Origin: a virus
DNA length: 44,559 nucleotides
Direction: 5' to 3' (one strand)
Virus record (IMG/VR): IMGVR_UViG_3300045988_062990
The position numbers were made by a program, and so were the translations under genes. Shown piece after piece: positions 1-44,559 of this stretch. The notes under the pieces are model-generated. The model was not told the DNA's origin, did not search any database, and worked only from the letters and a program-made list of their open reading frames with translations. How positions within the stretch are numbered: the first letter of the stretch is position 1; each line of letters starts with the position of its first letter.

Positions 1-95
1 CTTATTATGAAATCCTCTTACCATTGGAGCTGTGCGAATATCCCCAACAGGGGTATCGACCGCGCCGCCAAGGGAGTGGAACGAGCGACCGTAAG
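1..95. repeat. Terminal overlap, identical to 44465-44559 (closure of a circular contig)
   Basis: Read directly: the first 95 nt equal the last 95 nt. The overlap lies inside one continuous ORF. Confidence 0.95.
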
Positions 96-867: not shown

Positions 868-1102
868 AAACATCAAAGAAGTCACTGACATTGACCCGCA
901 GACGGAAACCTCTGTCACCATGTTCGAGTATGATGAGTACACTTTCCTCTTGAAAGACCGTGAGGGCTTGCGAGAGGACATCGAAAGCAATCTTAATGAT
1001 TGGCTTATCACTGGCAGAACGCTTGAGGTCAACGAAAGCGCAAGCATTGTGCAGGACATGAAAGCCGCACTGGAAATTTTGGGGGTGAAAGACAATGCGT
1101 AA
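779..1102 (+). CDS. Hypothetical protein (107 aa); overlaps the RT 3' end by 89 nt
   Basis: AAGGAGG at 763-769 lies 9 nt before the ATG. The ORF is acidic. I recognise no family. Confidence 0.65.
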   Translation: MRVKGNVSPVTLSMESYLPLEGYVEVRLRENIKEVTDIDPQTETSVTMFEYDEYTFLLKDREGLREDIESNLNDWLITGRTLEVNESASIVQDMKAALEILGVKDNA

Positions 1103-3352: not shown

Positions 3353-3461
3353 AAGTAGTCTAAGTAGTTAAAAATCGGTTTTTGCGTAAACTTTCGCCTA
3401 ATACGCGCGTACTTAGAGGAAGTTACACGCAAAACCTTAAAAACAACTACTTTGACTACTT
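3353..3461. repeat. Palindromic site 1 (candidate attP / module-boundary element). Its arms are perfect inverted copies of the arms of site 2 at 21333-21445.
   Basis: 3353-3387 is the reverse complement of 21411-21445 (35/35). 3414-3461 is the reverse complement of 21333-21380 (48/48). The internal dyad is centred on TACGCGCGTA (3402-3411). Each arm carries tandem AAGTAGT motifs. Confidence 0.85.
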
Positions 3462-3480
3462 AAACCCCCTCCCGTGGCAT

Positions 3481-3510
3481 AGAAAAAGAACGCACGATTA
3501 TCGTGCGTTC
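3481..3510 (-). terminator. Intrinsic terminator of the integrase gene
   Basis: The stem GAACGCACGA/TCGTGCGTTC encloses the stop codon. On the - strand it is followed by TTTTTCT. Confidence 0.65.
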
Positions 3511-5060
3511 TCTATTCTGTAAACAAACCCAAAAGTGTGTTTTATGAAGAACACAGAGTTCGGATTTGCACTATTTGGTGGAGCATAACACCCAATATCC
3601 GAACTCGTGAGAGTAGCGGTATTATTGCCCGAAAGATTGAATGTTAGCACAATCCGCTTTCCACCATCTTCATCGTCATACACATATACAGAGTTTACCA
3701 ATGTATCAATCACGCGCCGTTGGTAATCCTCATCATCAACATTCCCGCTCTTGAACGAAGTAAGCCAATACCTAATGCGGTTCTCGTTCAAGAGCGGTTT
3801 TTTCATTTCCTCACGGGCGATACGCCCCTCAATATCGGACTTCTCCTGTTCCAGTTCGTCAAGGCGGTCTTTGGTAGCAGAAGTAATGATACCTTGCTCT
3901 ATTGCGGAGACAAGGTTCTTTATTTTTTTCTGAACATCTTTCAGTTCAGCATTGAGACCGTCCAAGTAGGTGGTATCTGCTGATTCTTTTTCGATGATTT
4001 CCATAGCCCGTTTTGCAATAAGGGCGATATTCTCATCAGTCAACACATTCCGAACTGTATAGCGGACTACCAGTTTCTCTATCCAGTCTTTTCGTTCGGA
4101 TTTCTTTTTACAAGCGTGTTCCCGCTTTGCCTTTGTGCATTTGTAGTAATGATGCACCTGCCCTGTTTTTGATGTGCCACTCTCACCGACCATCGGACTA
4201 CCACAATGACCGCAGAACAGTTTGGTAGTCAGCAGATAGTTTTCGTGGGCTTTCGCCTTTGCCCTCGCTTTCCCATTATGCTTGAGCATAGCTTGTACTT
4301 TCTCAAACAGTACCTTGTCTATGATAGCGGGCATACCATCGGGAATAACAATGTCCATGAGCTTGTATGTGCCGATGTATTTCTCGTTTCGGAGAATGGT
4401 CTTGAGACTGTTCTTGTTAAAAGCGTTACCTCGTGCTGTCTTATACCCTCGTTCGTTGCAGTAGTTGATGATTTGGGTAGCCGACATACCATCAGCGTAG
4501 AGCTGAAATATCTCCTGCACGATTTTTGCCCCAACAGGGTCAACAGCGTACTTTCTGTCCTCACCTACGGTATAGCCAAGCAGGAGGTTTGCACCACCAG
4601 TGGCAAGACCTTGGAGGGCGTTCTCTCTGATACCTCGTTTGATGTTACGGGCAAGGTTCTCTGAGTAATATTCGGCATATCCCTCAAGGACAGACTCAAG
4701 GATAATGCCCTCCGGCGTGTCCGGCATGGGTTGTTTTGCGTAATAGACCCGTACCCCATTCTTTTTCAGTTTGGCTTTATAGATAGCAGAGTCGTATCTG
4801 TTACGGGCAAAACGGTCAAGGGTGTACATGATTACCGCTTCAAACTGTCCCTTTTCGCTGTCCTTGATGAGACGCTGAAAGCTCGGACGATTATCTGTTT
4901 TGCCGGAAAGGGCGCGGTCAATGTATTCGTTTATGATGGTAAATCCATTTTTGATTGCGAACTCGTGGCACTCTCGGAGCTGACCCTCTATAGACTCCTC
5001 TCTTTGATTGTGGCTCGAATATCGAGCATAGATTACTGCTTTCGTAGTCTCACCTCCAAT
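3498..5060 (-). CDS. int: Large serine recombinase (phage integrase); start codon unresolved
   Basis: The catalytic N-terminus ..KAVIYARYSSHNQREESIEGQ.. is encoded at 5042-4830, upstream of the first ATG (4829). A Cys-rich zinc-ribbon region (CGHCG..YYKC) and a coiled coil follow. The frame is open from ATT at 5058-5060, which follows an in-frame TGA at 5061-5063. Confidence 0.85.
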   Translation of the reverse strand: MGGETTKAVIYARYSSHNQREESIEGQLRECHEFAIKNGFTIINEYIDRALSGKTDNRPSFQRLIKDSEKGQFEAVIMYTLDRFARNRYDSAIYKAKLKKNGVRVYYAKQPMPDTPEGIILESVLEGYAEYYSENLARNIKRGIRENALQGLATGGANLLLGYTVGEDRKYAVDPVGAKIVQEIFQLYADGMSATQIINYCNERGYKTARGNAFNKNSLKTILRNEKYIGTYKLMDIVIPDGMPAIIDKVLFEKVQAMLKHNGKARAKAKAHENYLLTTKLFCGHCGSPMVGESGTSKTGQVHHYYKCTKAKREHACKKKSERKDWIEKLVVRYTVRNVLTDENIALIAKRAMEIIEKESADTTYLDGLNAELKDVQKKIKNLVSAIEQGIITSATKDRLDELEQEKSDIEGRIAREEMKKPLLNENRIRYWLTSFKSGNVDDEDYQRRVIDTLVNSVYVYDDEDGGKRIVLTFNLSGNNTATLTSSDIGCYAPPNSANPNSVFFIKHTFGFVYRIENAR

Positions 5061-7234: not shown

Positions 7235-8634
7235 ATGTAACTGTATCAAATGTCCTCACCATCGAGAACCCCACGCAGGACGCATTGATGTGGTGCAAAC
7301 GCAACCTCACGATTACGAACCCCGAATATACCAAGAAAGCCCGTATGCACTTTTGGCTCGGAAATACCCCCGCAACGCTGACCCTGTACGAGACGCGCGG
7401 CAACACCTTGGTTCTTCCCTTTGGGACGCTCCGAAACCTGCCGGACTGTATCGCAAAAGAAAGCACCTTTCAGAGCGCGTTTTCTATCCCTGTGAGCGTG
7501 TCTTATGGCGGGGTGGATATTCCACTCTACGATTACCAAAAGACCGCTGTGGACGCTCTGTACGCCGCGAAATACGGTATCTTGCAGAGCGCGGCAGGTA
7601 GCGGGAAAACGCAGATGGGGATTGCCCTTGTAAAGCGGTTCGGAAAGCGCGCCCTGTGGCTCACCCACACACTCGACCTGCTCCGGCAGAGTAAGGCTCG
7701 TGCCGAAATGTATATGGACTCAGACCTCATCGGAACTATCACAGAGGGTAAGGTCAATATCGGTAAGGGTATCACATTTGCCACTATCCAAACGATGTGC
7801 AAGCTCGACCTCGCACAGTACAAGGATTTCTTTGATGTGATTATCGTGGACGAGTGCCACCGCGTAGCGGGAACACCTACCGCTATGACGCAGTTCTACA
7901 AGGTTCTGAACAGCTTGTCGGCACGACATAAAATTGGTCTCTCCGCTACGGTACACCGCTCGGACGGAATGATTGAAGCTACTTATGCCCTACTCGGTCA
8001 TGTGGTTTACACCGTTCCCGATGAAGCCGTGGGAGACAAGATTATGAAAGTAGGTATTACCCCTGTTGGGACAGGCGTGGAAATCAGCCGCGAATGTCTG
8101 AACTCAGACGGTACGCTGAACTACACCAAGCTCATTACCTACCTTTGTAACGACAATTACCGCATAGCGTTCATAGCGTCATGGATTGTATCGGAAGCAG
8201 ACCATTCCTGTCTTATTCTGTCCGACAGACTGGAACACCTTGAACGGCTTATGAACGCTCTCCCTCGAAGTATGAGGGAAAATGCCGTAATGGTTAGCGG
8301 CAATATGACAACAAAAAAGGGAAAGGCTGAACGAGAAAAAGCGATTGAGGATATGCGAAGCGGTAAAAAGAAGTACCTGTTCGCTACTTACTCCCTCGCA
8401 AAAGAGGGGTTGGATATTCCTCGGTTAGAGCGGTTGTTCTTGGCAACACCCAAGAACGATTATGCGGTTATCACACAGAGTATCGGCAGAATTGCTCGTA
8501 CCTTTGATGGTAAAGAGGACGCTATCGCCTATGACTTTGTGGACAATATCCCCTATCTCGTGAAGTCCTATAAAAAGCGGTGTACGACCTACCGAAAGAA
8601 CGGGTGCTACTTCCGCTATACGGAGGGAGAGTGA
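7231..8634 (+). CDS. Superfamily-2 DEAD/DEAH-box helicase
   Basis: Walker A AAGSGKTQ, motif II DECH, later SAT-like LSAT. ATGA overlap with the upstream gene. Confidence 0.8.
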   Translation: MNVTVSNVLTIENPTQDALMWCKRNLTITNPEYTKKARMHFWLGNTPATLTLYETRGNTLVLPFGTLRNLPDCIAKESTFQSAFSIPVSVSYGGVDIPLYDYQKTAVDALYAAKYGILQSAAGSGKTQMGIALVKRFGKRALWLTHTLDLLRQSKARAEMYMDSDLIGTITEGKVNIGKGITFATIQTMCKLDLAQYKDFFDVIIVDECHRVAGTPTAMTQFYKVLNSLSARHKIGLSATVHRSDGMIEATYALLGHVVYTVPDEAVGDKIMKVGITPVGTGVEISRECLNSDGTLNYTKLITYLCNDNYRIAFIASWIVSEADHSCLILSDRLEHLERLMNALPRSMRENAVMVSGNMTTKKGKAEREKAIEDMRSGKKKYLFATYSLAKEGLDIPRLERLFLATPKNDYAVITQSIGRIARTFDGKEDAIAYDFVDNIPYLVKSYKKRCTTYRKNGCYFRYTEGE

Positions 8635-20971: not shown

Positions 20972-21131
20972 GCTTTCGGGTATGCTTGAGGACATAAATC
21001 CCGTGGAAATTACCTCTCACATACTGGACGGAACGCTCATGTCGTGGCTTGCGAGTTGGAAAATGAAGTCTCAGATGTTGGTGGCTTTCCTGCTCGAAAA
21101 TGAAAAAGCTCGATTATCCGAATCGGATTGA
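20940..21131 (+). CDS. Hypothetical small protein (start uncertain)
   Basis: Last ORF of the early operon. Its 3' end overlaps the first iteron. Confidence 0.4.
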   Translation: MRPMEMKMLTELSGMLEDINPVEITSHILDGTLMSWLASWKMKSQMLVAFLLENEKARLSESD

Positions 21132-21320
21132 AAAATAATCCTAAACGACATTAGGGAGATAATCCTAATCGGATTGGAAAATAATCTTTTCGACTTTTGG
21201 ATTTTCAGACCGAAATCGGAGGGGCGTAGACAAAGGAGATAATTTCTTATCCGAATTAGATACCGATGTTTTTGGGCGGTTGTCCTAATCGGATTGAGAA
21301 ATAGTCTTGTTCGGATTGAA
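21121..21320. repeat. Iteron-like direct repeats AATCGGATTGrrAAATArTC (3 full copies plus 1 partial)
   Basis: Copies at 21121-21140, 21167-21186 and 21287-21306, with a partial copy starting at 21309. Each has the core 9-bp dyad AATCGGATT. Confidence 0.75.
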
Positions 21321-21332
21321 TTGAGGTTTTTC

Positions 21333-21445
21333 AAGTAGTCAAAGTAGTTGTTTTTAAGGTTTTGCGTGTAACTTCCTCTATATAGGAAAATCCCTACTAT
21401 AAGAAGTTACACGCAAAAACCGATTTTTAACTACTTAGACTACTT
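21333..21445. repeat. Palindromic site 2, inverted partner of site 1
   Basis: Perfect 16-nt inverted repeats TTTTGCGTGTAACTTC / GAAGTTACACGCAAAA flank a 27-bp AT-rich centre. The outer arms match site 1 (48/48 and 35/35 in reverse complement). Confidence 0.85.
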
Positions 21446-24825: not shown

Positions 24826-25398
24826 ATGAGGGTCGGTTATGTACGAGTCAGCACCGCAGAACAAAATCCGGCAAGACAGGTGGAGCTTATGAAATCCCTC
24901 GGTGTGGAGAAAGTCTTTCTCGACAAAATCAGTGGGAAGAACACGGACAGACCGCAGTTCAATGAAATGCTTTCGTTTCTCCGTGAGGGCGATACCCTGT
25001 ATGTAGAGTCATTCTCACGACTCTCCCGCAGTACACGGGATTTACTCGGTACAGTGTCGGTGCTGTCGGGGCGAGGTGTGCAACTGGTATCTGACAAGGA
25101 AAAAGTAGACACCAACACCCCACAAGGTAGGTTTATGCTGACGGTGTTTGCGGCGTTGTCGGAGTTGGAGCGAGAGAATATCCTTGAGCGTCAGCGTGAG
25201 GGTATTGAGATTGCCAAAGCGGAGGGCAAGTACAAGGGGCGTAAGCCGATTGCAGTGACGGACAGATTTCTTGGCGCGGCTCGGAGTTGGCAAGAGGGTT
25301 CTCTCCCGCTGAAAGACGCTATTGAGCAGTCGGGACTGTCGGAGTCCACATTCTTTCGTAAGTGCAAACAGCAAGGGATAAGGAGGGTCGGTGTATGA
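24826..25398 (+). CDS. Small serine recombinase (resolvase/invertase family)
   Basis: MRVGYVRVSTAEQN..R.. catalytic N-terminus, ..SRLSRS.., ..ELERENILERQREGI.., and a C-terminal HTH. Confidence 0.9.
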   Translation: MRVGYVRVSTAEQNPARQVELMKSLGVEKVFLDKISGKNTDRPQFNEMLSFLREGDTLYVESFSRLSRSTRDLLGTVSVLSGRGVQLVSDKEKVDTNTPQGRFMLTVFAALSELERENILERQREGIEIAKAEGKYKGRKPIAVTDRFLGAARSWQEGSLPLKDAIEQSGLSESTFFRKCKQQGIRRVGV

Positions 25399-33276: not shown

Positions 33277-33713
33277 GTGACCCGCTGTCCTCCACTGAGG
33301 GGAGTGGTGGTGTTACTGCCACTGCTCCCCTCCACTCTTACGGAGAGAAATTTGAGGAGCTTTTTCCGTATTATCTGTCTCTCGGCATGACCGAAGAACA
33401 GTATTGGGATAAGGATTGCCGATTGGTGATTTTCTATCGGAAAGCGGAAGAACTCCGAACGAGCAGAAAAAACCAAGAAATGTGGTTACAGGGTGCGTAT
33501 TTCTACGAAGCTCTGTCCCGTGTGTCACCTCTGCTCCATGCTTTTGCCAAAAAGGGTACGAAACCTGCTCCGTACTTGTCAGAACCGTTCGCTATCACAG
33601 AAAAACAGGCTGAGTATCAGCAGGAAGAAAAGGACAAGAAAATCTACGATAAGGGCAAAGCACTTATCGAGGGCTTTATGGCGAAGCATAACAAGAAATT
33701 TGAAGGGAAGTGA
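32947..33713 (+). CDS. Tail assembly chaperone GT-like fusion made by a programmed -1 frameshift
   Basis: Slippery G_GGA_AAC at 33246-33252 in the zero frame. The -1 frame is open from there to 33713. The second ORF has no RBS of its own. Confidence 0.6.
33246..33252 (+). promoter_or_regulatory. -1 ribosomal slippery heptamer GGGAAAC
   Basis: X_XXY_YYZ in the frame of ORF 32947. Analogous to lambda G/GT GGGAAAG. Confidence 0.6.
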
Positions 33714-36700
33714 GAACCGTGTCTACTACAATCGAGCAGTTAGAACTTGAAGTACAATCGAGTGCCACATCAGCCGTGGCGCAATTAGACGCGCTTGCTT
33801 CTTCTTTGGGTAAAGTAAAATCCGCTACCAAAGGTGGAGTTGGTCTTACCGCTGTGGCAAGACAGCTTACCACGCTGAATACCGCACTGAACGGTATCAG
33901 CTCCACCAATGCGGATAATCTGAACAAGATGGCACAGGGCTTACAGGCACTTTCCTCTTGCGGAAACCTCAAGCTCTCGTCCTCTGTGGCTAATCAGATT
34001 TCCAACCTTGGGACGGCGGTACGGTCTCTGAATGGGGCTGATTTTTCCTCGCTTGGTCGGCTTGCGGACGCACTTACCCCGCTTTCCACCATCGGCAAGT
34101 CGAACCTCAACAGCTTTATCTCTCAGCTACAGCGATTGCCGCAAGCGGTACAGGGTCTCAACGGAGTGGACATCGGCGGGTTGGGAACACAGATTTCCGA
34201 ACTGGTATCTGCCCTTTCTCCGCTCTCTCAGATGGGTAAGAACAATCTCACCTCGTTTGTGACTCAGCTTGGTAAAATCCCCGCTCTCATGCAGTCTCTA
34301 AAGACGATAAACATTGGGGAACTTGCGTCACAAGTTCAACAGTTGGCAGACGCTTTCGCTCCTCTCGCTACGCAAATGCAAGCCATTTCGAGCGGTTTTG
34401 CGGCGTTTCCGGCAAGAATCCAAAAGCTGATTACCAGTACAAACAATCTGTCGAAGTCGAACGACAAAGCGTCCACGAGCTATGTGAACCTTGCCGCGAA
34501 AATCGGTATCGCAGTGGTAGCGGTCAAAAAAGCCGCTTCCGTATTGGCGAGATTCATCAACAAGTCCAACCAGTATGTCGAGGACTTGAACTTGTTTACA
34601 GCGTCTATGGGCGAGTACGCAAGTGCGGCGCAGGAATACGCGGAGCGTGTCAGTGAAATCGTTGGTATCGACCCCGCCGAATGGTTGAGAAACCAAGGCG
34701 TATTTATGACGATTACCAAGGGTTTCGGTGTGGCAAGTGATAGGGCGTACACGATGAGTCGAAACTTGACTCAGCTTGGGTATGACATTTCCTCGTTCTT
34801 CAACATTCCGTTCGAGGAAGCGTTCCAAAAGTTACAGTCGGGTATCGCGGGTGAGCTTGAACCGCTCCGTAGACTCGGTTATGACCTGTCTGTGGCTCGT
34901 CTACAGCAGGAAGCATACACCCTCGGTATCGAGAAGAAAGTCTCGGCTATGACACAGGCTGAGAAAGCGGAGTTGCGTTACTACGCAATTATGACGCAGG
35001 TAACAACCGCGCAGGGCGATATGGCGAGAACGCTGAACGCTCCTGCAAACCAACTCCGCGTCTTGCAAGCACAGGTAACTCAGTGCGCTCGTGCAATCGG
35101 TAATATCTTTATCCCCGCTCTGAACGCTATCCTGCCGTATGCGATTGCCGTAGCAAAGGTCATTCGGCTTATCGCAAATGCCATTGCAAGTCTGTTCGGA
35201 TTTGCACTGCCGGAGATTGATTACAGCGGTATCGGCGCAACTGTCGGGGGAGTCGCTGACAGTACACAGGACATCGGAGACGGTCTTGGTGACGCTACCA
35301 AAAAGGCGAAAGAGCTGAAAAACGCTCTGCTCGGTATTGATGAACTGAACATTATCTCTCCTCCCGAAGATACAAGCGGGAGCGGTGCAGGTGGTATCGG
35401 TGACATTGGAGGTGGCGGTCTTGGTTTCGACCTGCCGACCTACGATTTCCTTGACGGTGCTATCAGTTCAAAGGTCGATGAGATTGTTCAGAAAATGAAA
35501 GAATGGCTCGGTCTGAACAAGGAAATCGACTCGTGGGCTGACCTGTTCGATACCCGCCTTGGAAAAATCCTGTTAACGGTAGGAGCTATCGGTGCGGGTC
35601 TCGCGGCGTGGAAAATCGCAAAGAGTGTTGCCGATTTCGTGAAGTATATTACCTCGTTCAAGGGATTCGGTGCAGGTTGGGCGGGACTCGGCGCACTTGG
35701 GCTGTTGTCCGACCTCAATGAGTTCATCGGATATTTCCAAGACTTCCTTGAGAACGGCGCAACATTCCAAAATGTTGTCGGTATGATTAGTGAGTTCACG
35801 GGTGCAATCGGTGACTGCTTGATTATCCTCGGTAATCTCAAGATTGGCGGTGCGCTCAAGGTCGTACAGGGTATCGGTGAAATCGCTGTTGCAATCAAAG
35901 ACATTTCCGAAAGCGGTGTAAATTGGGACAATGCTAATACCGCTATCAGAGGTCTCACCAATATCGCAATCGGTATCGGCGTGTTTACGGGCAACCTCAA
36001 GGTGGCGGCATGGGGACTGGCTATCCAAGGCTTTACCTCCATCATCACGGAGATTGGCGCGAATTGGGACGCAATCAAACAGGGCGATTGGAGCGGCGTG
36101 GATAAGGTGACGCTGATTATCGGCGCACTGGAAGTTCTCGGCGGTCTCGCTATGGCGTTAGATGTGTTCTCCAAGCTCAAGGAGGTCGCTATCATCGGTA
36201 AGGCTTCCGAAGCAGTCACGACCGTTGCAACAGCAACAGAAACCCTCGATACCACGGTCAGTACAAAGCTGTCCCCGAACCTCACTTCTCTTGCAAAAAA
36301 CCTCGGTATGGGTATCGTTATTGTCGCGGAAGTCGCGGCGGCGGCACTTCTCATCACAGGTGCAATCATTTTGCTCGGTGAGGGATTAGCACAGGTCGGT
36401 GAATCGTGGCAACCCGTTATCAATAACGGTGGCACGGTCTTAGCGGCTATGGGTATTGGTATCGGTATCTTAGCGGTTGTCGGTATTGTGACCGCTCTGC
36501 TCGGTTCTGTCGGTACACCTCTCATCGTGAACATTGCTCTCGGTACTGCAATTCTCGCAGAGTTGGGTATCGCAACGGGGCTGTTCCTCGTAGAGATTTG
36601 GGCTATCGGTAAGGGCTTGGACGAAATCGGGCAAGCATGGCAACCCGTTCTCGATAACGGGGAAACCATTGCAACGGCTATCGGTCTCGGTACGGCTCTG

Positions 36701-38155
36701 CTTGTCGGTATCGGCGCGGTGACTGCCGCTCTTGGTGTGGCTACGGTCGCAAGTGCAGGTCTGCTCCCGTTGGCTATCGGACTCGGTACGGCTCTGCTTG
36801 TCGAACTGGCGGCGGCGTTCGTGCTGTTCTGTGAGAGCTTGGTCGCTACCGCAGATGAGCTTGGAAACAACCTCGCACCTGCCCTCAACGACCTTAACGG
36901 CAAACTGCCTACGCTGTCCGACAACATGAGCGATTTCGTTGACTTTATGACGGATTTCGCAGATGAGGTCGTTCGGTACACAAAGGTTTCAGCTATTGCC
37001 GGACTGAGCGCGACCATTGACACAATCATCGGTTGGTTTACGCAAGACCCTGTTGAGAAACTGGCAGACGATGTAGAGAACATTTACAACCAAACCACTA
37101 CCCTTAACGAAAAGCTGAACTTGGCTGTACCCGAATTGAAAACGGCAATCGACCTGCTCAAACAGTATAAGGGTTTCCTTACCGAAATGGAAACGCTCTG
37201 CAACAGTAATGTTGAACTGTCCACGGGTATGTTCGTGAACATGAAAGAGGTCGGTCAGAAGCTCGTGACGGGCTTTGTGGACGGCATTAAGTCGAAGTCC
37301 TCTGACTTCTCCAATGCGGCGAAAACACTGGTGGACGGGTTCAAGAACTCGCTGAACACCAACGCCGCAACCTGTAAGTCGAGCTTCATTTCTTGGGCTT
37401 CCAACCTCAAGAACTGGTTTACCTCCGCGTCCTTTGGTGCAATCAACCGAACGACATTCGGCAACTACGCCAAGGATATTGTGAGCGGCTTCAACAACGG
37501 TATCACCAATAACTACGCTACGGCTAAGAGTGGTATGGTGTCGTTTGCGAACACTGTGAAGAACGCTTTTACGGGAATTGTCTCTTACGAGGTGTTCTAT
37601 GACATTGCAAAAGATGTTATCAGCGGCTTCAACAACGGTATCAACGATTTCTACGATACGACAAGACCGTATATGCGGTGTTGGGCGAATGACGCGGCGG
37701 CGGCATACAAAGCGGCGTTGGACTCCAACTCTCCGTCTAAGCGGTTTATGCGTATCGGTGAGGACACCGTTCTCGGCTACAACCTCGGTATCTCCAACCT
37801 TGGCGATACGACAAAGGGCGTTGTGACGGATTGGGCGAACTCGTTTACAAGCGTAAGCCCGACCATGAGCTTTGCCGTAGACACCTCCGCTCTGAAATAC
37901 TACAGCAGTGATTCGTTCGCACAATCTGTTTCCGCTGATGTGGCGGCACACAGCACGGTTACTGCAACGGGCTTCAAGGAGGGCATGGAGGAGTTCTACA
38001 GAGAGTATATCGAACCTACCCTGTCGCAGATGGCAGACGATATGCGTAGACAAGCCGACAAGCAGGAACAGACCGTGGTTCAGATTGGCAACCGTGTTGT
38101 CAATGACGCGGTTACTACTCAGAAAAAAGCCAACGGCTATGTATTCGCACGATAA
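33710..38155 (+). CDS. Tape measure protein (1481 aa)
   Basis: Size, position, and long helical and Gly/Ala-rich hydrophobic stretches. Confidence 0.9.
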   Translation: MRTVSTTIEQLELEVQSSATSAVAQLDALASSLGKVKSATKGGVGLTAVARQLTTLNTALNGISSTNADNLNKMAQGLQALSSCGNLKLSSSVANQISNLGTAVRSLNGADFSSLGRLADALTPLSTIGKSNLNSFISQLQRLPQAVQGLNGVDIGGLGTQISELVSALSPLSQMGKNNLTSFVTQLGKIPALMQSLKTINIGELASQVQQLADAFAPLATQMQAISSGFAAFPARIQKLITSTNNLSKSNDKASTSYVNLAAKIGIAVVAVKKAASVLARFINKSNQYVEDLNLFTASMGEYASAAQEYAERVSEIVGIDPAEWLRNQGVFMTITKGFGVASDRAYTMSRNLTQLGYDISSFFNIPFEEAFQKLQSGIAGELEPLRRLGYDLSVARLQQEAYTLGIEKKVSAMTQAEKAELRYYAIMTQVTTAQGDMARTLNAPANQLRVLQAQVTQCARAIGNIFIPALNAILPYAIAVAKVIRLIANAIASLFGFALPEIDYSGIGATVGGVADSTQDIGDGLGDATKKAKELKNALLGIDELNIISPPEDTSGSGAGGIGDIGGGGLGFDLPTYDFLDGAISSKVDEIVQKMKEWLGLNKEIDSWADLFDTRLGKILLTVGAIGAGLAAWKIAKSVADFVKYITSFKGFGAGWAGLGALGLLSDLNEFIGYFQDFLENGATFQNVVGMISEFTGAIGDCLIILGNLKIGGALKVVQGIGEIAVAIKDISESGVNWDNANTAIRGLTNIAIGIGVFTGNLKVAAWGLAIQGFTSIITEIGANWDAIKQGDWSGVDKVTLIIGALEVLGGLAMALDVFSKLKEVAIIGKASEAVTTVATATETLDTTVSTKLSPNLTSLAKNLGMGIVIVAEVAAAALLITGAIILLGEGLAQVGESWQPVINNGGTVLAAMGIGIGILAVVGIVTALLGSVGTPLIVNIALGTAILAELGIATGLFLVEIWAIGKGLDEIGQAWQPVLDNGETIATAIGLGTALLVGIGAVTAALGVATVASAGLLPLAIGLGTALLVELAAAFVLFCESLVATADELGNNLAPALNDLNGKLPTLSDNMSDFVDFMTDFADEVVRYTKVSAIAGLSATIDTIIGWFTQDPVEKLADDVENIYNQTTTLNEKLNLAVPELKTAIDLLKQYKGFLTEMETLCNSNVELSTGMFVNMKEVGQKLVTGFVDGIKSKSSDFSNAAKTLVDGFKNSLNTNAATCKSSFISWASNLKNWFTSASFGAINRTTFGNYAKDIVSGFNNGITNNYATAKSGMVSFANTVKNAFTGIVSYEVFYDIAKDVISGFNNGINDFYDTTRPYMRCWANDAAAAYKAALDSNSPSKRFMRIGEDTVLGYNLGISNLGDTTKGVVTDWANSFTSVSPTMSFAVDTSALKYYSSDSFAQSVSADVAAHSTVTATGFKEGMEEFYREYIEPTLSQMADDMRRQADKQEQTVVQIGNRVVNDAVTTQKKANGYVFAR

Positions 38156-38167
38156 GGAGGGGTGAGA

Positions 38168-38539
38168 ATGGCTTATTTGGCAATCAACGGTTATGAGCTA
38201 CCTCCTCCGAAGCGAGGAGTACGCCCCACGGTGACTACTGTAGTAGACGCGGGTAGAAACGCCAACGGCTCAGTAGTCGGTCAGCGCGTGGGTCGAGACC
38301 AGTACAAGATTGATGGTCTTGAATGGTCTTGGCTCACCGCCGACCAATGGGCGCAAATATTGAGTGTGCTAAGTCATTTTTTCGTATATGTGACTTTCAC
38401 CGACCCTGTGTCGAACTCCCTCAAGACCGTCAAAATGTACTGCGGCGATAGAACCGCAGAACCCTATTGGGTCGATGAAAACGGGAAACCGACACACTAC
38501 AGAAATTGCAAGGTAAATCTGATTGATTGCGGAGAGTAA
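38168..38539 (+). CDS. Small distal-tail protein (hypothetical)
   Basis: AAGGAGG lies 8 nt before the ATG at 38168. Directly downstream of the tape measure gene. Confidence 0.6.
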   Translation: MAYLAINGYELPPPKRGVRPTVTTVVDAGRNANGSVVGQRVGRDQYKIDGLEWSWLTADQWAQILSVLSHFFVYVTFTDPVSNSLKTVKMYCGDRTAEPYWVDENGKPTHYRNCKVNLIDCGE

Positions 38540-38551
38540 GGAGGGGATTTT

Positions 38552-40774
38552 GTGCAAAAGGTTTCAAAAGCATATAAAGAGAGCATGAAATCCTCTCTCC
38601 GCGAGAGAGCGTATATTATGATTTCGTTCGGTCTGCTCAACCAAGAGGCACAAGCGAAAGCAAAGGTCGAGCAAGGTGATTTCACCTACTACTCCAACTC
38701 GACAAATATCCTGTCCGAAAAGACCGATGATACCATTTATGCTACCCTTGAGGAGAATTTCACCAAGGTTGACGGAACGATGTTCTTTCTTCCTCGACAA
38801 AACGCTTCCAATGCTTACCTTGATACTGGTATCATCAGCGACAAGCTCCTTACACAAGCGCAGTTCGAGCTTACAATCAATCTCAATGTTCCCGCTACGG
38901 ATTTCAAGGGTATTACCATCAATTTCGGTGAGAATTACCCTGTGAATTTCGATTTGGTGAGCAGTAGCGGACAGGTTGTCGAGTTTCGCAATAATACGGA
39001 GGGGCTGTTCAGTACCGAAGAAGTGTTGACAAATACGACCTCGGTGAAACTGGTCGTTTACAGTATGAAGAACCCCCATAGTCGGGTGCGTATCTACTCT
39101 ATCCGATTCGGTTACGGTCTTGTGTACTACAACGACTCTGTAATGGCTTCTTCCCTTGAGAGCTATGTCTCGCCCATCGGGGCAGATGTGCCGCAGATTG
39201 ATTTCTCGGTACAGCTCAAGAACTACGACCACTACTTTAATGTAGATAACCCGAAATCTGCTATCAACTTCCTTGAGACGGGACAGGAAATGGAAATCTA
39301 TTACGGCTATCAGCTTCCTACGGGAGAGGTCGAATGGATTCGAGGAAACCGCCTGTTGTGTTCGGAGTGGGAGTCGGACGATTACACCGCCACTATCCGC
39401 TGTCAAGATGTGTTCCGTAGTATGGACGCGGAGTTCTACAGGGGGCTGTATCGCAGTACAGGTAAGAGCTATTACGATTTGGCTCTTGAGGTATTGGCTG
39501 ACGCGGGACTGACCGATTACTATATCGACCCGCAGTTGAAAAATCTGAAAAGCAAAAACCCCATTCCTCGCGTTCAGCATAAGGAAGCGTTACAGATTAT
39601 CGCAAACGCTTGTCGCTGTGTGCTGTCGCAGACCCGTATGGGCGGTATTCAGATTAAGTCCAACTTCATTCCAGAAGCGGCGGCAAGCGCAAATGCGGAA
39701 GCAACCTATTCCAATGTTGAAAAGATTATGGACGGTACTGCAAAAGACGAGTACGCCACCTTTGCTCAGAACTATACCACGGCAGACGGTAAGATGTTCT
39801 TTCTACCCCGCAATTTTGGAAACGCCACGCTGAATACAGGTTTTGTGTCAGCAGTGCAGTCTAAAGCGGACGGAACATTCACCACCAACCCCGTTGTCAC
39901 GCTTACACAGGAAGTTGCTTGTATGTACTATGGTGTAAAACTGGTATTCGGACACTCGATTCCGGCAGCTTTTACAATCCGAACCTACAATGATGGGACG
40001 CTCGTGACGGAGTACGAGGTCGGGGCTGATGAAATCAGCAAGAACACGGTCATTCACACGGACTTTGACGATTTCGATGTTATGAAAATCGAGTTCACAA
40101 AGACCGCCGAACCGTATAGCCGTATCGTGCTGAATAATTTCAGCTTTGGCGATATTACGGATTTCACTATGACCCGCACAGATATGACCTCCTCTCCGAA
40201 AGCTATCAAGCAGGAGCTTGTCAAGGAGGTAATCGTTCCTTGCTACAGCTATCAGACGGGCAATCAGCAAGAGAACCTTATAAGTGAGGAAGTTACCGTA
40301 ACGGCGGGTGATGTAGAGACCTTTTTCGTTGGTGAACCCTCCTATGGATTTTCTGCCGCACTGGAAAACCAGTCGGGTGGCGTTTCCATCGTGGAGTCGG
40401 GTAACTACTACATCACTGTAAAATTCACTCGGACAGGTACTTTCCGCTTGGAGATTTCGGGGTATCGCTACAAAATCGTGGAACGGTACGCCACCAAAAC
40501 ACTAAACAATCGAGGGAAAACAATCAAGTGGGAAAATCCTCTCATTTCCGATATGGGAATGGCGCAAGACCTCGCGGACTGGCTCGGTGACTATTATCAG
40601 TCCGGCATTGAGTACGAGTACGATACTCGCGGTAATCCCGAAATTGATGTGAACGATATTGTTTACCAAGAGAACGAGTTCCAGTCTGATATGAAAGTAA
40701 ACATCTACCGCCACACCATCATTTTCAATCAGAGCTTTGCGGGTAAGGTCACGGCTCGTAGAACAGGAGGTTAG
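38552..40774 (+). CDS. Large tail/baseplate structural protein (740 aa)
   Basis: GTG start after AAGGAGGGG. Call based on position and size. Confidence 0.7.
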   Translation: MQKVSKAYKESMKSSLRERAYIMISFGLLNQEAQAKAKVEQGDFTYYSNSTNILSEKTDDTIYATLEENFTKVDGTMFFLPRQNASNAYLDTGIISDKLLTQAQFELTINLNVPATDFKGITINFGENYPVNFDLVSSSGQVVEFRNNTEGLFSTEEVLTNTTSVKLVVYSMKNPHSRVRIYSIRFGYGLVYYNDSVMASSLESYVSPIGADVPQIDFSVQLKNYDHYFNVDNPKSAINFLETGQEMEIYYGYQLPTGEVEWIRGNRLLCSEWESDDYTATIRCQDVFRSMDAEFYRGLYRSTGKSYYDLALEVLADAGLTDYYIDPQLKNLKSKNPIPRVQHKEALQIIANACRCVLSQTRMGGIQIKSNFIPEAAASANAEATYSNVEKIMDGTAKDEYATFAQNYTTADGKMFFLPRNFGNATLNTGFVSAVQSKADGTFTTNPVVTLTQEVACMYYGVKLVFGHSIPAAFTIRTYNDGTLVTEYEVGADEISKNTVIHTDFDDFDVMKIEFTKTAEPYSRIVLNNFSFGDITDFTMTRTDMTSSPKAIKQELVKEVIVPCYSYQTGNQQENLISEEVTVTAGDVETFFVGEPSYGFSAALENQSGGVSIVESGNYYITVKFTRTGTFRLEISGYRYKIVERYATKTLNNRGKTIKWENPLISDMGMAQDLADWLGDYYQSGIEYEYDTRGNPEIDVNDIVYQENEFQSDMKVNIYRHTIIFNQSFAGKVTARRTGG

Positions 40775-40776
40775 TT

Positions 40777-41211
40777 ATGGCATGGACAACGCCTAAAACA
40801 GACTGGTACGGTGTCACAAACCCCTCCGATGGGGTATATACGGGAGATAGGTTCAATGCGGTCGATTTCAACCGTATCAAGAACAACCTCACCTATCTGC
40901 GTGAGTTGGCTCTCAAGATGTACGATGAGTTCTCTATCGTCTCCCTCGGTGCTGACCGTACCTATTCGGATTACTTCTATGCTGACGAAATCAATCAGCT
41001 TGAAGAAAATCTGAAAACCATCAACAACAAAACTCTCAAAAGGTCGTATGGTAATCCTCCGACCTATGTAGCAAACGGAAACACAATGGATTTTGCAGAA
41101 CTGAATCGGTTGGAACGCGCCATACTTGACCTCTATGACAGACTCACCAACGAGTCTGAGGGGAGAAGAATGTTCACTTGGAATTTTGGAATGAGAGGAG
41201 GAGACCTGTAA
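40777..41211 (+). CDS. Tail-fibre-module protein (144 aa)
   Basis: Tight packing in the module. MAWTTPKTDW N-terminus similar in style to the next two ORFs. Confidence 0.6.
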   Translation: MAWTTPKTDWYGVTNPSDGVYTGDRFNAVDFNRIKNNLTYLRELALKMYDEFSIVSLGADRTYSDYFYADEINQLEENLKTINNKTLKRSYGNPPTYVANGNTMDFAELNRLERAILDLYDRLTNESEGRRMFTWNFGMRGGDL

Positions 41212-41928
41212 ATGGCATGGGAACTTTTACCCGTAAATTATACGGACGCTGTGTGGAGCGGTCTAAAACGGTACAACACCATCACCAATGAGGACGGTAC
41301 AGTATCGTTCCAAGATGTGACCGCTTACAGCAACAAAGAAAAGTCCTTTTTTGGTGCGAGAGACGCGAACCGTATGAACGAAGCTCTCAATACCCTTATG
41401 TCGATGGTAGAAAACGGTTCTGACCTGTATGAAGCATTTCAGAATTACTTTACCGCTCAGAAAGGACTTTTTGAGGACGAAGCGAACACCAAGCAGGACG
41501 GTTTTACCGCGTATATTACTGCTTTGGAAGCGGAGGGAGACAATGTAATCAACTCCCTTAAAACCGATTACCGCACGGAAATGGACACCTTTGAGAGTCA
41601 GCAACAGGCACTATTTACGACTTGGTTCGAGTTCGTCAAGAGTCAGCTCGGAGAAGATGTTGCCGGAAATCTGCAAAATCAGATTACTGCTCTCGACACC
41701 AAAACGGACGGTTTTGACCCCCGCGCAACTACTTTCTCTGCCGATGGAAAGACCATCACGGAAATCGACTCGGCAGGGAACAAGAAAATCGAAACTGTGT
41801 TCACTTCCGATACAGTTATCACGCAAAAGCTCTTTAAGAAAGAGTCAAACGGAAGTTATTCCCTCGTAAACACTAAGACCATCACTTTCAGTGCAGACGG
41901 TCTAAACATCACAGAGGAGGTAGTGTAA
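41212..41928 (+). CDS. Tail-fibre-module protein (238 aa)
   Basis: The ATG directly follows the upstream stop. Coiled-coil middle section. Confidence 0.6.
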   Translation: MAWELLPVNYTDAVWSGLKRYNTITNEDGTVSFQDVTAYSNKEKSFFGARDANRMNEALNTLMSMVENGSDLYEAFQNYFTAQKGLFEDEANTKQDGFTAYITALEAEGDNVINSLKTDYRTEMDTFESQQQALFTTWFEFVKSQLGEDVAGNLQNQITALDTKTDGFDPRATTFSADGKTITEIDSAGNKKIETVFTSDTVITQKLFKKESNGSYSLVNTKTITFSADGLNITEEVV

Positions 41929-43863
41929 ATGTCTTGGGCAGAAGCAAAATGGACTGTTGACAGTCTGTTGCAGAAAATCGGGCAAGCCCCGAACAACATG
42001 AGGAGCTTTATCGCATACTCGCTTTCCGCGACCAGTATCGGCTTGAAATTTCAAGAACCCGCCGACAGCTATGACGCAAACAACAATCTGATTTGTTCTG
42101 TGGGCGGTGTAATGATTCGCATGAGCGATACTGGTTATCCGACCAAACCCTCTGAGGGAACGCTCGTGGTAAACAACACCAATCTCGGTGCGTATATCAA
42201 CACGCCCTTTACGGTGAACGGACTCACCAAGGGAAAGAAGTATTACTTTTCGGCGTTTCCGTATTCCGTACAGGGCGTTTACAACCTGTCGAGCAATACG
42301 GCAAACAGAGCGGACGCTACCCCCGCCGCGGGTGAAATCGCCAATGTCACCATTTCTATTGACGATGATTCCGCATTTTCCAGTGTGGTAGTCACCTGTG
42401 TCGATGAAACGGAATCCGCGTCTACACAGTCGGCAACGCTCACCAAAACGAAGAAAACAGCTTCCTTTGTCGTGCCTATCGGTCATACCTATCATATCGA
42501 GTACGGTGCAGAGGACGGGTACAGCAAGCCGGATAACACTACACCGAAAGTTTCTGTGGCAGGTACGACCTCGAACTACACGGCAACCTATTACTACTTT
42601 ACGGCTACTATCGCTGTCACCTACCCCGCAGGTGCAACTTGTACCTGTGAGTGTGGGAGTACAAAGTACACCGCTCCTAATACCTCCGGCAATCATACTT
42701 TCCAAGTGCATAATGTCGGCACATGGACAGTAAAGGCAGTTTCCGGCTCTGATACAGACTCTAAGTCAGTATCTATCACTTCCTCCGGGCAGTCTCGTAG
42801 CGTGGAACTGTCTTTCGTGAAAATCTATGGTATCAGTCGTGACATTACGGCTACCTCTCCCGCTTGGGCGAGAACGGATTCTGCTGTCGGTAAGACTGCC
42901 AAAGCCACCGTAGGCACAACGGCGGGTTCGAGTGACTTCAACAACTGCTATCCTTGGAGCGGCATTGTCCGTGAAACCCTGTCCACGGGTGATGTAATGG
43001 TGAAAATCCCCAAGTTTTGGTATCGCCGTTATCGTAGTGGAAATGTGGAATATCTCAAGATTGCGGATAAAGCCACAAGCGGCTTCACGCTTCACCCCGC
43101 GTTCAATCACGGTGGTGTGGTAAAGGATTATCTCTATGTGGGTGCTTATAAGACCACGAGCGGTAACAAGTCCGCTTCCGGCGTAAGCCCGTTGGTAAAT
43201 CAGACGAGAGCGACCATGCGTTCCAATGCGAAAGCAAAGGGTACGGGTTGGGGCATTATCGACATTGCCGCACTCTCCGCAATTCAGATGTTGATTCTCG
43301 TGGAATTTGCCAACAACAATGTGCAGTCCGTCATTGGGCGCGGCTACTGCGACAGCAACAGCTCTGCCCTCAGTACAGGCACTTGCAACAATGTCAGTGG
43401 TCTCACGGGTAGACCTGCCGGAACAGACGGTAAGGTTGATGTAGTTTGGCGCGGTATCGAGGGTCTGTGTGGTAATGTTTGGGAATGGGTTGATGGTGTC
43501 AACTGGAACAACGGCACTTACTATGTGTGCAATGACCCGTCCAAGTACGCAGACGATACCACTACGAACTACACCGCCCTCTCCTTTAAGGGAGCAACGA
43601 ACTGGTCTTCCAGTTATATCACACAGGAGGGGCTTGACACTGGTAGTAATCCTCATGTCATGCTCCCGTCTGCCGCAGGTAGCGGAAGCGAAACGACCTA
43701 TGATTGTGACGCTTGTTGGTCTTCTACTGGTTGGCGCGTCTTCGTACGCGGCGGTGGTTGGGGCAATGGCTCGGGCTGTGGTCTCTTTACGGCTCATTTG
43801 GACGGTGGCTCGTCCGGCTCGCGCTCGAACGTTGGGTCGCGCCTGCTTTATATCCCCTCCTAA
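41929..43863 (+). CDS. DGR target protein: tail fibre / receptor-binding protein with a C-terminal C-type-lectin (FGE-sulfatase-like) fold carrying the VR
   Basis: ..WRGIEGLCGNVWEWVDG.. and the ..GGGWGNGSGCGLF.. C-terminus. The last ~40 codons are the VR. Confidence 0.85.
   Translation: MSWAEAKWTVDSLLQKIGQAPNNMRSFIAYSLSATSIGLKFQEPADSYDANNNLICSVGGVMIRMSDTGYPTKPSEGTLVVNNTNLGAYINTPFTVNGLTKGKKYYFSAFPYSVQGVYNLSSNTANRADATPAAGEIANVTISIDDDSAFSSVVVTCVDETESASTQSATLTKTKKTASFVVPIGHTYHIEYGAEDGYSKPDNTTPKVSVAGTTSNYTATYYYFTATIAVTYPAGATCTCECGSTKYTAPNTSGNHTFQVHNVGTWTVKAVSGSDTDSKSVSITSSGQSRSVELSFVKIYGISRDITATSPAWARTDSAVGKTAKATVGTTAGSSDFNNCYPWSGIVRETLSTGDVMVKIPKFWYRRYRSGNVEYLKIADKATSGFTLHPAFNHGGVVKDYLYVGAYKTTSGNKSASGVSPLVNQTRATMRSNAKAKGTGWGIIDIAALSAIQMLILVEFANNNVQSVIGRGYCDSNSSALSTGTCNNVSGLTGRPAGTDGKVDVVWRGIEGLCGNVWEWVDGVNWNNGTYYVCNDPSKYADDTTTNYTALSFKGATNWSSSYITQEGLDTGSNPHVMLPSAAGSGSETTYDCDACWSSTGWRVFVRGGGWGNGSGCGLFTAHLDGGSSGSRSNVGSRLLYIPS
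43730..43849 (+). repeat. DGR variable region (VR)
   Basis: Gap-free alignment to 43938-44057. There are 25 differences, all where the TR has A. Confidence 0.9.
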
Positions 43864-43868
43864 GGGGG

Positions 43869-43891
43869 TGCGGGGGATTTTCTCCCCCGCA
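43869..43891 (+). promoter_or_regulatory. GC-rich hairpin 5 nt after the target stop codon (DGR target-recognition hairpin candidate)
   Basis: TGCGGGGGA-ttttc-TCCCCCGCA: a 9-bp stem and 5-nt loop with no T-run after it. Confidence 0.65.
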
Positions 43892-43937
43892 TAAGTGGGT
43901 CGATACAAAACAGATAGAACTTCATAAGGCGAACAGT

Positions 43938-44057
43938 AAAAGCGCGTCTTCAAACACGGCGGTAATTGGAACAATGGCTCGAAATGTGGTCTCTTTACGG
44001 CTAATTTGAACAATGACTCGTCCAACTCGAACTCGAACATTGGGTCGCGCCTACTTT
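43938..44057 (+). repeat. DGR template repeat (TR)
   Basis: The A-rich invariant copy of the VR. Non-coding (a TAA at 43937-43939 in the VR-equivalent frame). Carries nine AAY codons at the varied positions. Confidence 0.9.
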
Positions 44058-44170
44058 TGTTAAACAGCAGAAACCTATACAAAATACTGTCTCGCCGTAC
44101 CCATTGGTAAAAAATAGTTTGGAGGGATAGGGTTAGTAAGTCTCTTGAAAGCCCTATAAGAAACAAAAGC
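43938..44170 (+). ncRNA. Predicted DGR RNA (TR plus 113-nt spacer up to the RT start)
   Basis: Inferred by analogy with characterised DGRs, in which TR and the downstream spacer form the template-primer RNA. No transcript boundaries are visible. Confidence 0.5.
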
Positions 44171-44559
44171 ATGAAAAGAATTGGTTTCCTATACGAACAG
44201 ATAGTTTCGGAAGAAAATTGCAGACTGGCTATCATCAATGCCGCAAAACATAAGAAGAAACGCAAGAATGTTATGAAAGTAATAAACAATCTTGACTTTT
44301 ATGCGAAAGACTTGTCTGAGCGGTTGGTTCGTTTAGATTTCACCTCTCCGTATCGGACTCGTATCATAAAGGACGGTCTGTCGGGCAAGGAGCGGGAGTT
44401 GCAGATTCCGGCATTCTATCCCGACCAGTGCGCTCACCATGCAATCGTGCAGGTGCTACAACCGCTTATTATGAAATCCTCTTACCATTGGAGCTGTGCG
44501 AATATCCCCAACAGGGGTATCGACCGCGCCGCCAAGGGAGTGGAACGAGCGACCGTAAG
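44171..44559 (+). CDS. DGR reverse transcriptase, N-terminal part (continues at position 96 of the window)
   Basis: MKRIGFLYEQIVSEENCRLAIINAAKHKKKR... The frame joins ORF 7..867 through the 95-bp overlap (44471 is equivalent to 7, and 300 nt separate it from the ATG). Confidence 0.9.
   Translation, partial: MKRIGFLYEQIVSEENCRLAIINAAKHKKKRKNVMKVINNLDFYAKDLSERLVRLDFTSPYRTRIIKDGLSGKERELQIPAFYPDQCAHHAIVQVLQPLIMKSSYHWSCANIPNRGIDRAAKGVERATV
44465..44559. repeat. Terminal overlap, identical to 1-95
   Basis: Direct comparison. Confidence 0.95.

Follow-up and report, generated by a model that had tools for sequence, protein, structure and literature searches.

What kind of element follows the tail genes of the phage genome deposited as IMG/VR virus record IMGVR_UViG_3300045988_062990, and is it still at work? 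The window analyzed here is the whole of that record, 44,559 nt, and all coordinates are window positions. The original prediction was that positions 41929–44559 hold a complete diversity-generating retroelement (DGR), in which a template repeat (TR) and a reverse transcriptase (RT) diversify a variable repeat (VR) at the C-terminus of a distal tail-fiber protein. We are highly confident that this is a genuine DGR of the accessory-free kind, consisting of a target gene with its VR, a TR and an RT, and that it is carried by a temperate siphovirus-like phage of gut Clostridia. Its parts are as follows.

41929–43863, plus strand: DGR target gene, 644 aa; PHROG phrog_5302 ‘tail protein’ (E 6e-63).
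43734–43849, plus strand: VR, with a hypervariable core at 43744–43831 (codons 606–635).
43832–43849, plus strand: constant 3′ block of the VR, TTGGGTCGCGCCTGCTTT, resembling an initiation-of-mutagenic-homing (IMH) sequence and containing a GC-rich decamer; G43845 stands against A44053 of the TR.
43854–43892, plus strand: two adjacent GC-rich hairpins, directly 3′ of the VR.
43942–44057, plus strand: TR, inside the 307 non-coding nucleotides that separate the target gene from the RT gene.
44098–44172, plus strand: structured spacer RNA, Rfam RT-18 (RF03021); 43.5 bits by Infernal (gathering score 41.3), covering model positions 1–84 of 84.
44171–44559, plus strand: 5′ part of the RT gene, codons 1–129 plus two bases of codon 130; Pfam RVT_1 (E 2.9e-17).
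1–867, plus strand: 3′ part of the RT gene, with bases 1–95 duplicated and new sequence from base 96 to the stop codon at 865–867; encodes YADD.

The repeat pair carries the first part of the argument. A computed alignment reproduced what had been aligned by hand: 43730–43849 matches 43938–44057 without gaps, the offset being 208 throughout, and the 120 aligned positions include 25 mismatches. Every one of the 25 has an adenine in the TR (19 A>G, 3 A>T and 3 A>C), eight of the 33 TR adenines are unchanged in the VR, and no mismatch falls at a TR C, G or T. The hypergeometric probability that all mismatches lie on adenines is 3.3e-19 for the 120-nt alignment and 6.7e-17 for the 116-nt core returned by a separate repeat finder, which detected the same pair as 43734–43849 and 43942–44057 (82% identity, spacing 208). 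The adenine-only pattern is therefore secure, and the attribution of all 25 differences to mutagenesis needs correction. Five of them, at 43730–43733 (GTTG in place of AAAA) and at 43845/44053 (G in place of A), are fixed in 18 of the 18 sequences of the population alignment described below, which identifies them as boundary differences. The first four lie outside the true homology and mark its 5′ edge, so that the working TR extends from about 43942 to 44057 and its variable adenines from 43952 to 44039. Position 43845 lies inside the near-invariant GC-rich 3′ block; in the relative L001, the TR base matching A44053 is itself G. Once the fixed five are removed, 20 mutated adenines remain in the window copy (20 of 20 mismatches at A), and 28 adenines are variable in the population.

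The position and reading frame of the repeats are those expected of a DGR that rewrites the end of a protein. The VR comprises codons 601–641 of the 644-codon open reading frame (ORF) at 41929–43863, placing it at the C-terminus of the target as predicted. The TR, which had been described as non-coding and as lying shortly before an RT gene, is separated by 74 nt from the stop codon of the target and by 113 nt from the ATG of the RT at 44171. Read in the frame of the VR, it contains nine AAY (AAC or AAT) codons, the number counted originally, together with two AAA codons and four single codons (CAC, ACG, GAC and ATT) that also have a variable A. Nearly all variable adenines (26 of 28) occupy codon positions 1 or 2, and a stop codon could arise by mutation only at the two AAA codons. 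Up to 28 nt in 15 codons are rewritable, corresponding to ~7e16 DNA variants and ~4e15 protein variants. A search of both strands using the non-adenine positions of the TR found no second VR in the genome.

Related contigs display the same pattern at the level of a population. A scan of IMG/VR with the RT identified 42 loci, and 20 of these, with RTs 75–99% identical to that of the window, contain both repeats; 17 of the 20 were combined with the window in a 1.7-kb alignment of 18 sequences. Across the 20 contigs the TRs are nearly identical to the window TR, and the VRs are all distinct except for one matching pair (L009 and L013). In 18 of the 20, every mismatch between a VR and its own TR is at an adenine (15–26 mismatches each); one non-adenine mismatch occurs in L007 and four in L026. 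Mean column entropy over the 18 sequences is 0.35–0.55 bits in the VR, compared with 0.02–0.07 in the TR and 0.03–0.29 in the flanks, and the TR, the spacer and the hairpin 3′ of the VR are all better conserved than the coding flanks. Hypervariation within the VR is restricted to the columns that correspond to TR adenines: 28 of these 33 columns vary, with four bases used in all but three and a mean entropy over the 33 of 1.38 bits, as against 8 of the 87 other VR columns (mean entropy 0.05 bits). For six of those eight, the base counts in the TR are the same as those in the VR. Taken with the near-exclusive location of mismatches at adenines of each contig’s own TR, these matched columns indicate that TR polymorphisms are copied into the cognate VR and, thus, that information flows from TR to VR.

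Could a hypervariable C-terminus have arisen without reverse transcription, by diversifying selection or by recombination among tail-fiber alleles? Receptor-binding tips of phages are commonly hypervariable and mosaic, and the target gene does contain patches of raised diversity upstream of the VR, for example at 43340–43399 and 43580–43639. Neither process, however, would confine changes to TR-adenine columns (28/33 vs 8/87), neither would be expected to transfer C, T or G polymorphisms specific to a TR into the VR beside it, and neither would be expected to produce saturated VR divergence between copies with zero divergence in their flanks. We give this explanation almost no credence.

The last of these observations also bears on whether the DGR is working. 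Of 1,611 flanking columns and 88 VR columns, the contig pair L019/L023 differs at 0 and 16, respectively, L011/L017 at 1 and 19, and L006/L007 at 1 and 21. VR divergence is ~0.2 whatever the divergence of the flanks. VR turnover is therefore far above background divergence: the VR is rewritten much faster than the genome mutates, which argues that the element is active in this phage lineage, as judged from the related contigs. Heterogeneity at adenine-templated positions, which the original prediction had proposed to look for in related samples, is present throughout these relatives. The closest 90%-identity clusters comprise 5,566 distinct sequences for the target and 492 for the RT; these sizes fit hypervariation of the target and are only suggestive.

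The second part of the argument concerns the enzyme. Bases 1–95 of the window are identical to bases 44465–44559, so the contig represents a 44,464-bp circle in which only the point of linearization breaks the RT gene, noted earlier as split at the contig junction. Read across the junction, where it continues to position 867, the gene is an intact ORF of 386 codons with YADD at residues 221–224, and the C-terminal 122 residues of its product are very basic (isoelectric point 11.5). RVT_1 is the only RT family matched in Pfam.

An RT of this description might instead belong to a group II intron, a retron or a defense system (Abi/DRT) and merely neighbor an unrelated imperfect repeat. The top sequence matches in NCBIfam and the Protein Data Bank (PDB) are indeed group II intron RTs, and the JGI source names one homologue ‘retron-type reverse transcriptase’. 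Nevertheless, the NCBIfam scores are far under their cut-offs (TIGR04416, group II intron, 100 vs 300; Drt3a, 90 vs 200; retron St85, 64 vs 235; AbiA, 23 vs 250), in a collection that appears to include no DGR-specific RT model, none being among the matches. In the PDB, phmmer does not separate the group II RT 5hhj (E 1.4e-16) from the Bordetella DGR RT 8ub7 (E 2.9e-16), and Rfam finds no group II intron or retron RNA over the whole window. Structural comparison does make a distinction. A homologue with 96% identity was modeled with AlphaFold2 (predicted local distance difference test score (pLDDT) 88), and among PDB structures Foldseek ranks the Bordetella DGR RT first for this model (8ub7_A, E 3.1e-16, template-modeling (TM) scores 0.71/0.82, root-mean-square deviation 3.8 Å), with group II intron, G2L4, DRT9 and retron RTs below it; the phage RT also carries an IG motif, not QG. 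Moreover, adenine-biased TR/VR pairs lie beside the RT genes of all relatives examined. These include ten viral and four genome loci at 27–49% RT identity, the genome loci coming from Desulfobacteraceae, Methanosaeta, Kiritimatiellales and Saccharibacteria bins, an archaeal one among them, and two closer genome loci at 74–85% identity. The neighbors of its relatives, the structural match and the sub-threshold NCBIfam scores together support grouping this RT with DGR RTs, in agreement with the original assignment, and we regard a non-DGR origin as exceedingly improbable.

One motif of the enzyme departs from its class. Motif 4 of DGR RTs has the signature (I/L/V)GxxxSQ. Residues 188–195 of the phage RT (window ~258–281) read PIGNYTSP, which keeps the IG and replaces the Q with P and so does not conform. 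All of the 120 closest homologues have SP in place of SQ, and SQ is found in the Bordetella RT (bRT) and in more distant DGR-linked relatives. Because the functional hallmarks of a DGR are present, we treat SP as a variant specific to this clade and not as grounds for exclusion; one consequence is that motif-based DGR finders might miss the element. The residues aligned to R74 of bRT and to the isoleucine of its IG motif, which we take to be modulators of adenine mutagenesis, are conserved. In the 75%-identical relative L026, the RT frame at 4001–4575 reaches a stop after 191 codons, right behind IGNYTSP, and tblastn matches the whole protein; this copy is possibly frameshifted or decaying.

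Several observations weigh against a fully functional DGR in this phage. First, no gene for Avd or another accessory protein was detected by Pfam among the neighboring ORFs and 49 further ORFs (E≤0.01), and the interval between VR and TR has no room for a gene. Second, the RT has IGNYTSP where the Bordetella enzyme and distant relatives have IGxxxSQ. Third, no promoter for a TR–RT transcript was recognized, a promoter and terminator scan from the VR to the RT being uninformative. Finally, the case for activity comes from relatives of the phage, and the case for receptor binding by the target comes from gene position and fold. Some of these points, along with the apparently interrupted RT frame of L026, would fit a fossil DGR whose repeats and RT were inherited, whose homing function was lost in this phage and whose VR differences are old. 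Such an origin is difficult to reconcile with an intact RT ORF containing YADD, with 16–21 VR differences between contigs whose 1,611 flanking bases are the same or differ once, a turnover well beyond point mutation, with non-adenine TR polymorphisms that are mirrored in the cognate VR, or with conservation of the TR, spacer and hairpin above that of the coding flanks. We therefore consider a fossil very unlikely and prefer a DGR that is active in the lineage.

Avd is essential in the Bordetella prototype. Its absence here means that the word ‘complete’ in the original prediction is valid only in the sense of a complete accessory-free architecture. Such architectures have precedent: Avd occurs in 74% of DGRs, and the accessory-free Architecture A makes up 29% of the same set (75 of 372 as printed) (PMC5758913). 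Wu et al. 2018 also described an avd-less Lineage 3 and proposed Avd-independent retrohoming for such elements (PMC5758913). The phage locus has the same order of target with VR, TR and RT, and no accessory gene; Lineage 3A comes from Bacteroides and its relatives (PMC5758913), whereas the best host evidence for this phage points to Oscillospiraceae. A 107-aa ORF at 779–1102 (plus strand) was considered as a possible Avd and rejected, as it is acidic where Avd is basic and has no match in Pfam or PHROG. It shares 89 nt with the 3′ end of the RT gene. The notion that the basic C-terminal region of the RT stands in for Avd is speculation. We would advance only tentatively, and with some doubt, the broader idea that this clade uses a mechanistically distinct, Avd-independent form of retrohoming that needs just a longer RT (IGxxxSP, basic C-terminus) and a small structured spacer RNA. 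If it does, several of the orphan ‘RT-n’ motifs in Rfam would be explained as priming RNAs of DGRs, and a two-component diversifier, RT plus RNA, would be available for engineering.

What signals might direct such a system to its target? The 3′ block of the VR is near-invariant, with two low-frequency column changes at 43832–43833 among the 18 sequences and a single base that differs between the VR and TR copies, and homology to the TR stops at its end, 43849. By analogy with the IMH of the Bordetella phage BPP-1 (PMC5758913, PMC3240598), its role may be IMH-like. Behind it, the main hairpin, at 43868–43892, has a core of GCGGGGGA paired with TCCCCCGC around a TTTTC loop. The predicted DNA fold following the VR has a free energy of −18.3 kcal/mol (z = −4.7), a stability equaled by 0 of 200 shuffled sequences, and no equivalent structure follows the TR. 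The hairpin is retained in L026 with a compensatory C-G to T-A change, and hairpins of other sequence are present in L024 (RT identity 42%) and L025 (39%). As no run of T residues lies behind it, we do not call it a terminator. In BPP-1, a hairpin or cruciform immediately behind the VR is required for efficient retrohoming (PMC3240598), and the structure described here is a candidate for the same target-recognition role. A match of the hairpin to the Rfam family Clostridiales-2 (18.6 bits vs 58.6) was rejected as chance.

The spacer between TR and RT is the best-conserved stretch of the locus (entropy 0.00–0.01 at 44088–44147), and its RNA shows compensatory pairs in two stems. RT-18 is found at the equivalent position in seven related loci (L001, L018, L024, L025, L026, L043 and L044), and in sister clades the same spacer contains RT-3 (L028 and L036) or RT-17 (L045). 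Folding of the whole TR-plus-spacer RNA gave a structure no stabler than shuffled sequence (z = 0.09), so the support for structure is limited to the small RT-18 element. Weinberg et al. 2017 described the motifs RT-1 to RT-19 as lying ‘near RT genes’, tied only RT-10 to a DGR, as the spacer of BPP-1, and speculated that the remaining ones were parts of retrons or DGRs (PMC5737381). The BPP-1 spacer is a required element and supplies the 2′-OH for priming (PMC6182149). Given that RT-18, RT-3 and RT-17 lie exactly between a TR and an RT gene, they are probably spacer and priming RNAs of DGRs, and this placement provides those RNAs with a probable function.

These elements suggest how the DGR may operate. 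First, a transcript containing the TR (43942–44057) and the 113-nt RT-18 spacer would be reverse-transcribed by the 386-aa RT, perhaps with the spacer itself acting as primer. Second, the RT would copy C, G and T faithfully and place random bases opposite template adenines. Third, the resulting cDNA would replace the VR, with its 3′ end set by the GC-rich block at 43832–49 and with assistance from the GC hairpin downstream. Finally, 15 codons in a C-type-lectin-fold domain of the last tail-module protein would be rewritten, presumably altering what the phage binds.

The predicted structure of the target is consistent with this scheme. An AlphaFold2 model (pLDDT 85.5) shows N-terminal β-sandwich domains of the fibronectin type III (FN3) or Ig-like kind, followed by a C-terminal C-type-lectin-fold domain that contains the VR. 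The best Foldseek match is 5vf4 (E 1.8e-12), the DGR variable protein TaqVP, and the matches ranked lower are mostly FN3 and other β-sandwich structures. A phmmer comparison with 5vf4 (E 9.5e-6) aligns the C-terminal VR segments of the two proteins, and a family profile search gave a weak match to the C-type lectin botrocetin. GNVWEW, the motif on which a C-type-lectin target of the FGE-sulfatase-like type had been proposed, is present at residues 515–520. The C-type-lectin fold holds up as a TaqVP-type fold; the FGE-sulfatase-like label does not, as Pfam has no match, FGE-sulfatase (PF03781) included, for the C-terminal 314 residues at E≤10 or for the whole protein at E≤0.01. Residues 604–640 were also compared among 45 aligned homologues, and the sites with no majority residue coincide with TR-adenine codons. 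‘Tail protein’ is the PHROG label, and ‘distal tail fiber’ goes beyond it by inference from gene order and that label; with the fold added, the target is presumably a receptor-binding tail fiber.

TaqVP, from Thermus aquaticus, is a C-type-lectin-fold protein (5vf4; PMC6328139) and is the top PDB match to the target by both sequence and structure, with residues 601–641 of the target aligned to residues 343–383 of TaqVP. The two proteins are 18–19% identical, and they differ in setting and architecture: TaqVP is a cellular protein that has no N-terminal β-sandwich domains, whereas the target belongs to a phage tail module.

Comparison with the DGR of BPP-1 (mtd with its VR, avd, TR and brt) places the phage element within a familiar plan. 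Both share the RT-dependent, adenine-specific pattern of TR-to-VR change and TRs rich in AAY codons; in both, the VR occupies the C-terminal end of a tail protein that binds the receptor and has a C-type-lectin fold, features that are predicted here. Further likenesses are a constant GC-rich 3′ block and a GC hairpin that immediately follows the VR (PMC3240598), structure in the spacer that links TR to RT (PMC6182149, PMC5737381) and an RT whose model superimposes on bRT (8ub7) with the TM scores given above. By contrast, the phage described here has no avd, with 74 nt separating the target stop codon from the TR; its RT is 58 residues longer, ends in a basic region, reads IGNYTSP where bRT has IGSLTSQ, and is ~22% identical to the Bordetella enzyme in a structural alignment; its spacer is RT-18 where that of BPP-1 is RT-10 (PMC5737381); and its target has no sequence similarity to Mtd detectable in PDB searches. 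With respect to Rfam RT-18, the spacer at 44098–44172 reaches the gathering score over the full model, and the family, described merely as ‘near RT genes’, is located here and in the seven related loci exactly between a TR and a DGR RT.

More broadly, no source of DGRs is known to be richer than gut phages, whose targets are mostly tail proteins (PMC8144416). The phage resembles human-gut phages with DGRs (Minot 2012; hankyphage, PMC6199706; Roux 2021, PMC8144416) in its gut association and tail-protein target, in having Ig-like domains that adjoin a C-terminal C-type-lectin domain with the VR, and in VR turnover that is apparently constant. It differs in sequence: megablast of 38500–44559, a 6-kb region, against 50,697 GenBank phage records found no nucleotide match, and a protein search of the same records found only RTs of less than 40% identity, the closest deposited phages by RT being Butyrivibrio phage Arawn and Lactobacillus phage LBR48 (~37%). 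The element belongs to a well-known class in which accessory-free members are already catalogued, and it would not surprise a specialist. As a case from nature of continual re-tuning of a phage tail protein it is clean and well documented, with rewriting of the VR outpacing ordinary mutation by a wide margin. What goes beyond the routine is that no Avd is encoded, that SQ has become SP in the RT throughout a clade, and that orphan Rfam RT motifs lie in DGR spacers. It also offers a minimal two-part system in which Avd-independent retrohoming could be tested.

The surrounding genome establishes the context of the element. The window is a complete, circular, temperate siphovirus-like phage genome of 44.46 kb with a G+C content of 48%. 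Helicase, DNA polymerase, primase, large terminase, portal and major head proteins were identified with PHROG, together with the following landmarks.

3498–4829, minus strand: large serine integrase (PHROG, E 1e-96).
33710–38155: tape-measure protein, 1,481 aa (PHROG).
1699–2742: amidase-type endolysin, 3′ of the RT gene, past small ORFs.

Four tail-module ORFs lie 3′ of the tape-measure gene, and the last of them encodes the 644-aa target. With the target at the end of the tail module and small ORFs and the endolysin following the RT, the retroelement sits between the tail and lysis modules. Possession of a serine integrase sets this phage apart from hankyphage, which is Mu-like and transposable.

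In an Oscillospiraceae genome bin, a contig of 164.5 kb (L044) encodes an RT 74% identical to that of the window, with its own TR and VR, and similarity to the phage stops there at a tmRNA gene. A homologue of the target with 72% identity is encoded by an Anaerotruncus isolate, Anaerotruncus sp. DFI.9.16. The serine integrase, the Oscillospiraceae prophage relative and the Anaerotruncus homologue support a temperate phage of gut Clostridia, the host probably being a member of the Oscillospiraceae; the integrase and the related prophage beside the tmRNA gene also bear out the temperate lifestyle proposed at the outset. A 20-kb contig from an ‘uncultured Bacteroides’ bin was set aside as a guide to the host, since the 164.5-kb Oscillospiraceae contig and the Anaerotruncus isolate are better evidence.

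Alignment of L044 positions 7859–8267 with window positions 3510–3584 shows that the related prophage terminates at the 3′ end of the tmRNA gene. The final window-like stretch of L044 falls inside the 3′ end of the window’s integrase ORF, and this suggests that the end of that gene overlaps the phage attachment site, attP.

Other features of the genome lie away from the retroelement. A palindromic element of ~113–120 nt is present in two copies 18 kb apart, one just downstream of the integrase gene (3353–3471) and the other intergenic (21323–21445), near short direct repeats at 21105–21308; complementarity between its arms reaches 100% over 35 nt and 93% over 58 nt. Besides the large integrase, a small serine recombinase of 190 aa (24826–25398, plus strand; Resolvase domain, E 6e-43; PHROG ‘DNA invertase’) is encoded just upstream of the terminase gene. 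Of two further ORFs, one gives a hit to the PemK/MazF toxin family (Pfam E 8.7e-19; PHROG ‘MazF-like growth inhibitor’) and the other to the N-terminal domain of dATP/dGTP diphosphohydrolase (E 1.5e-12).

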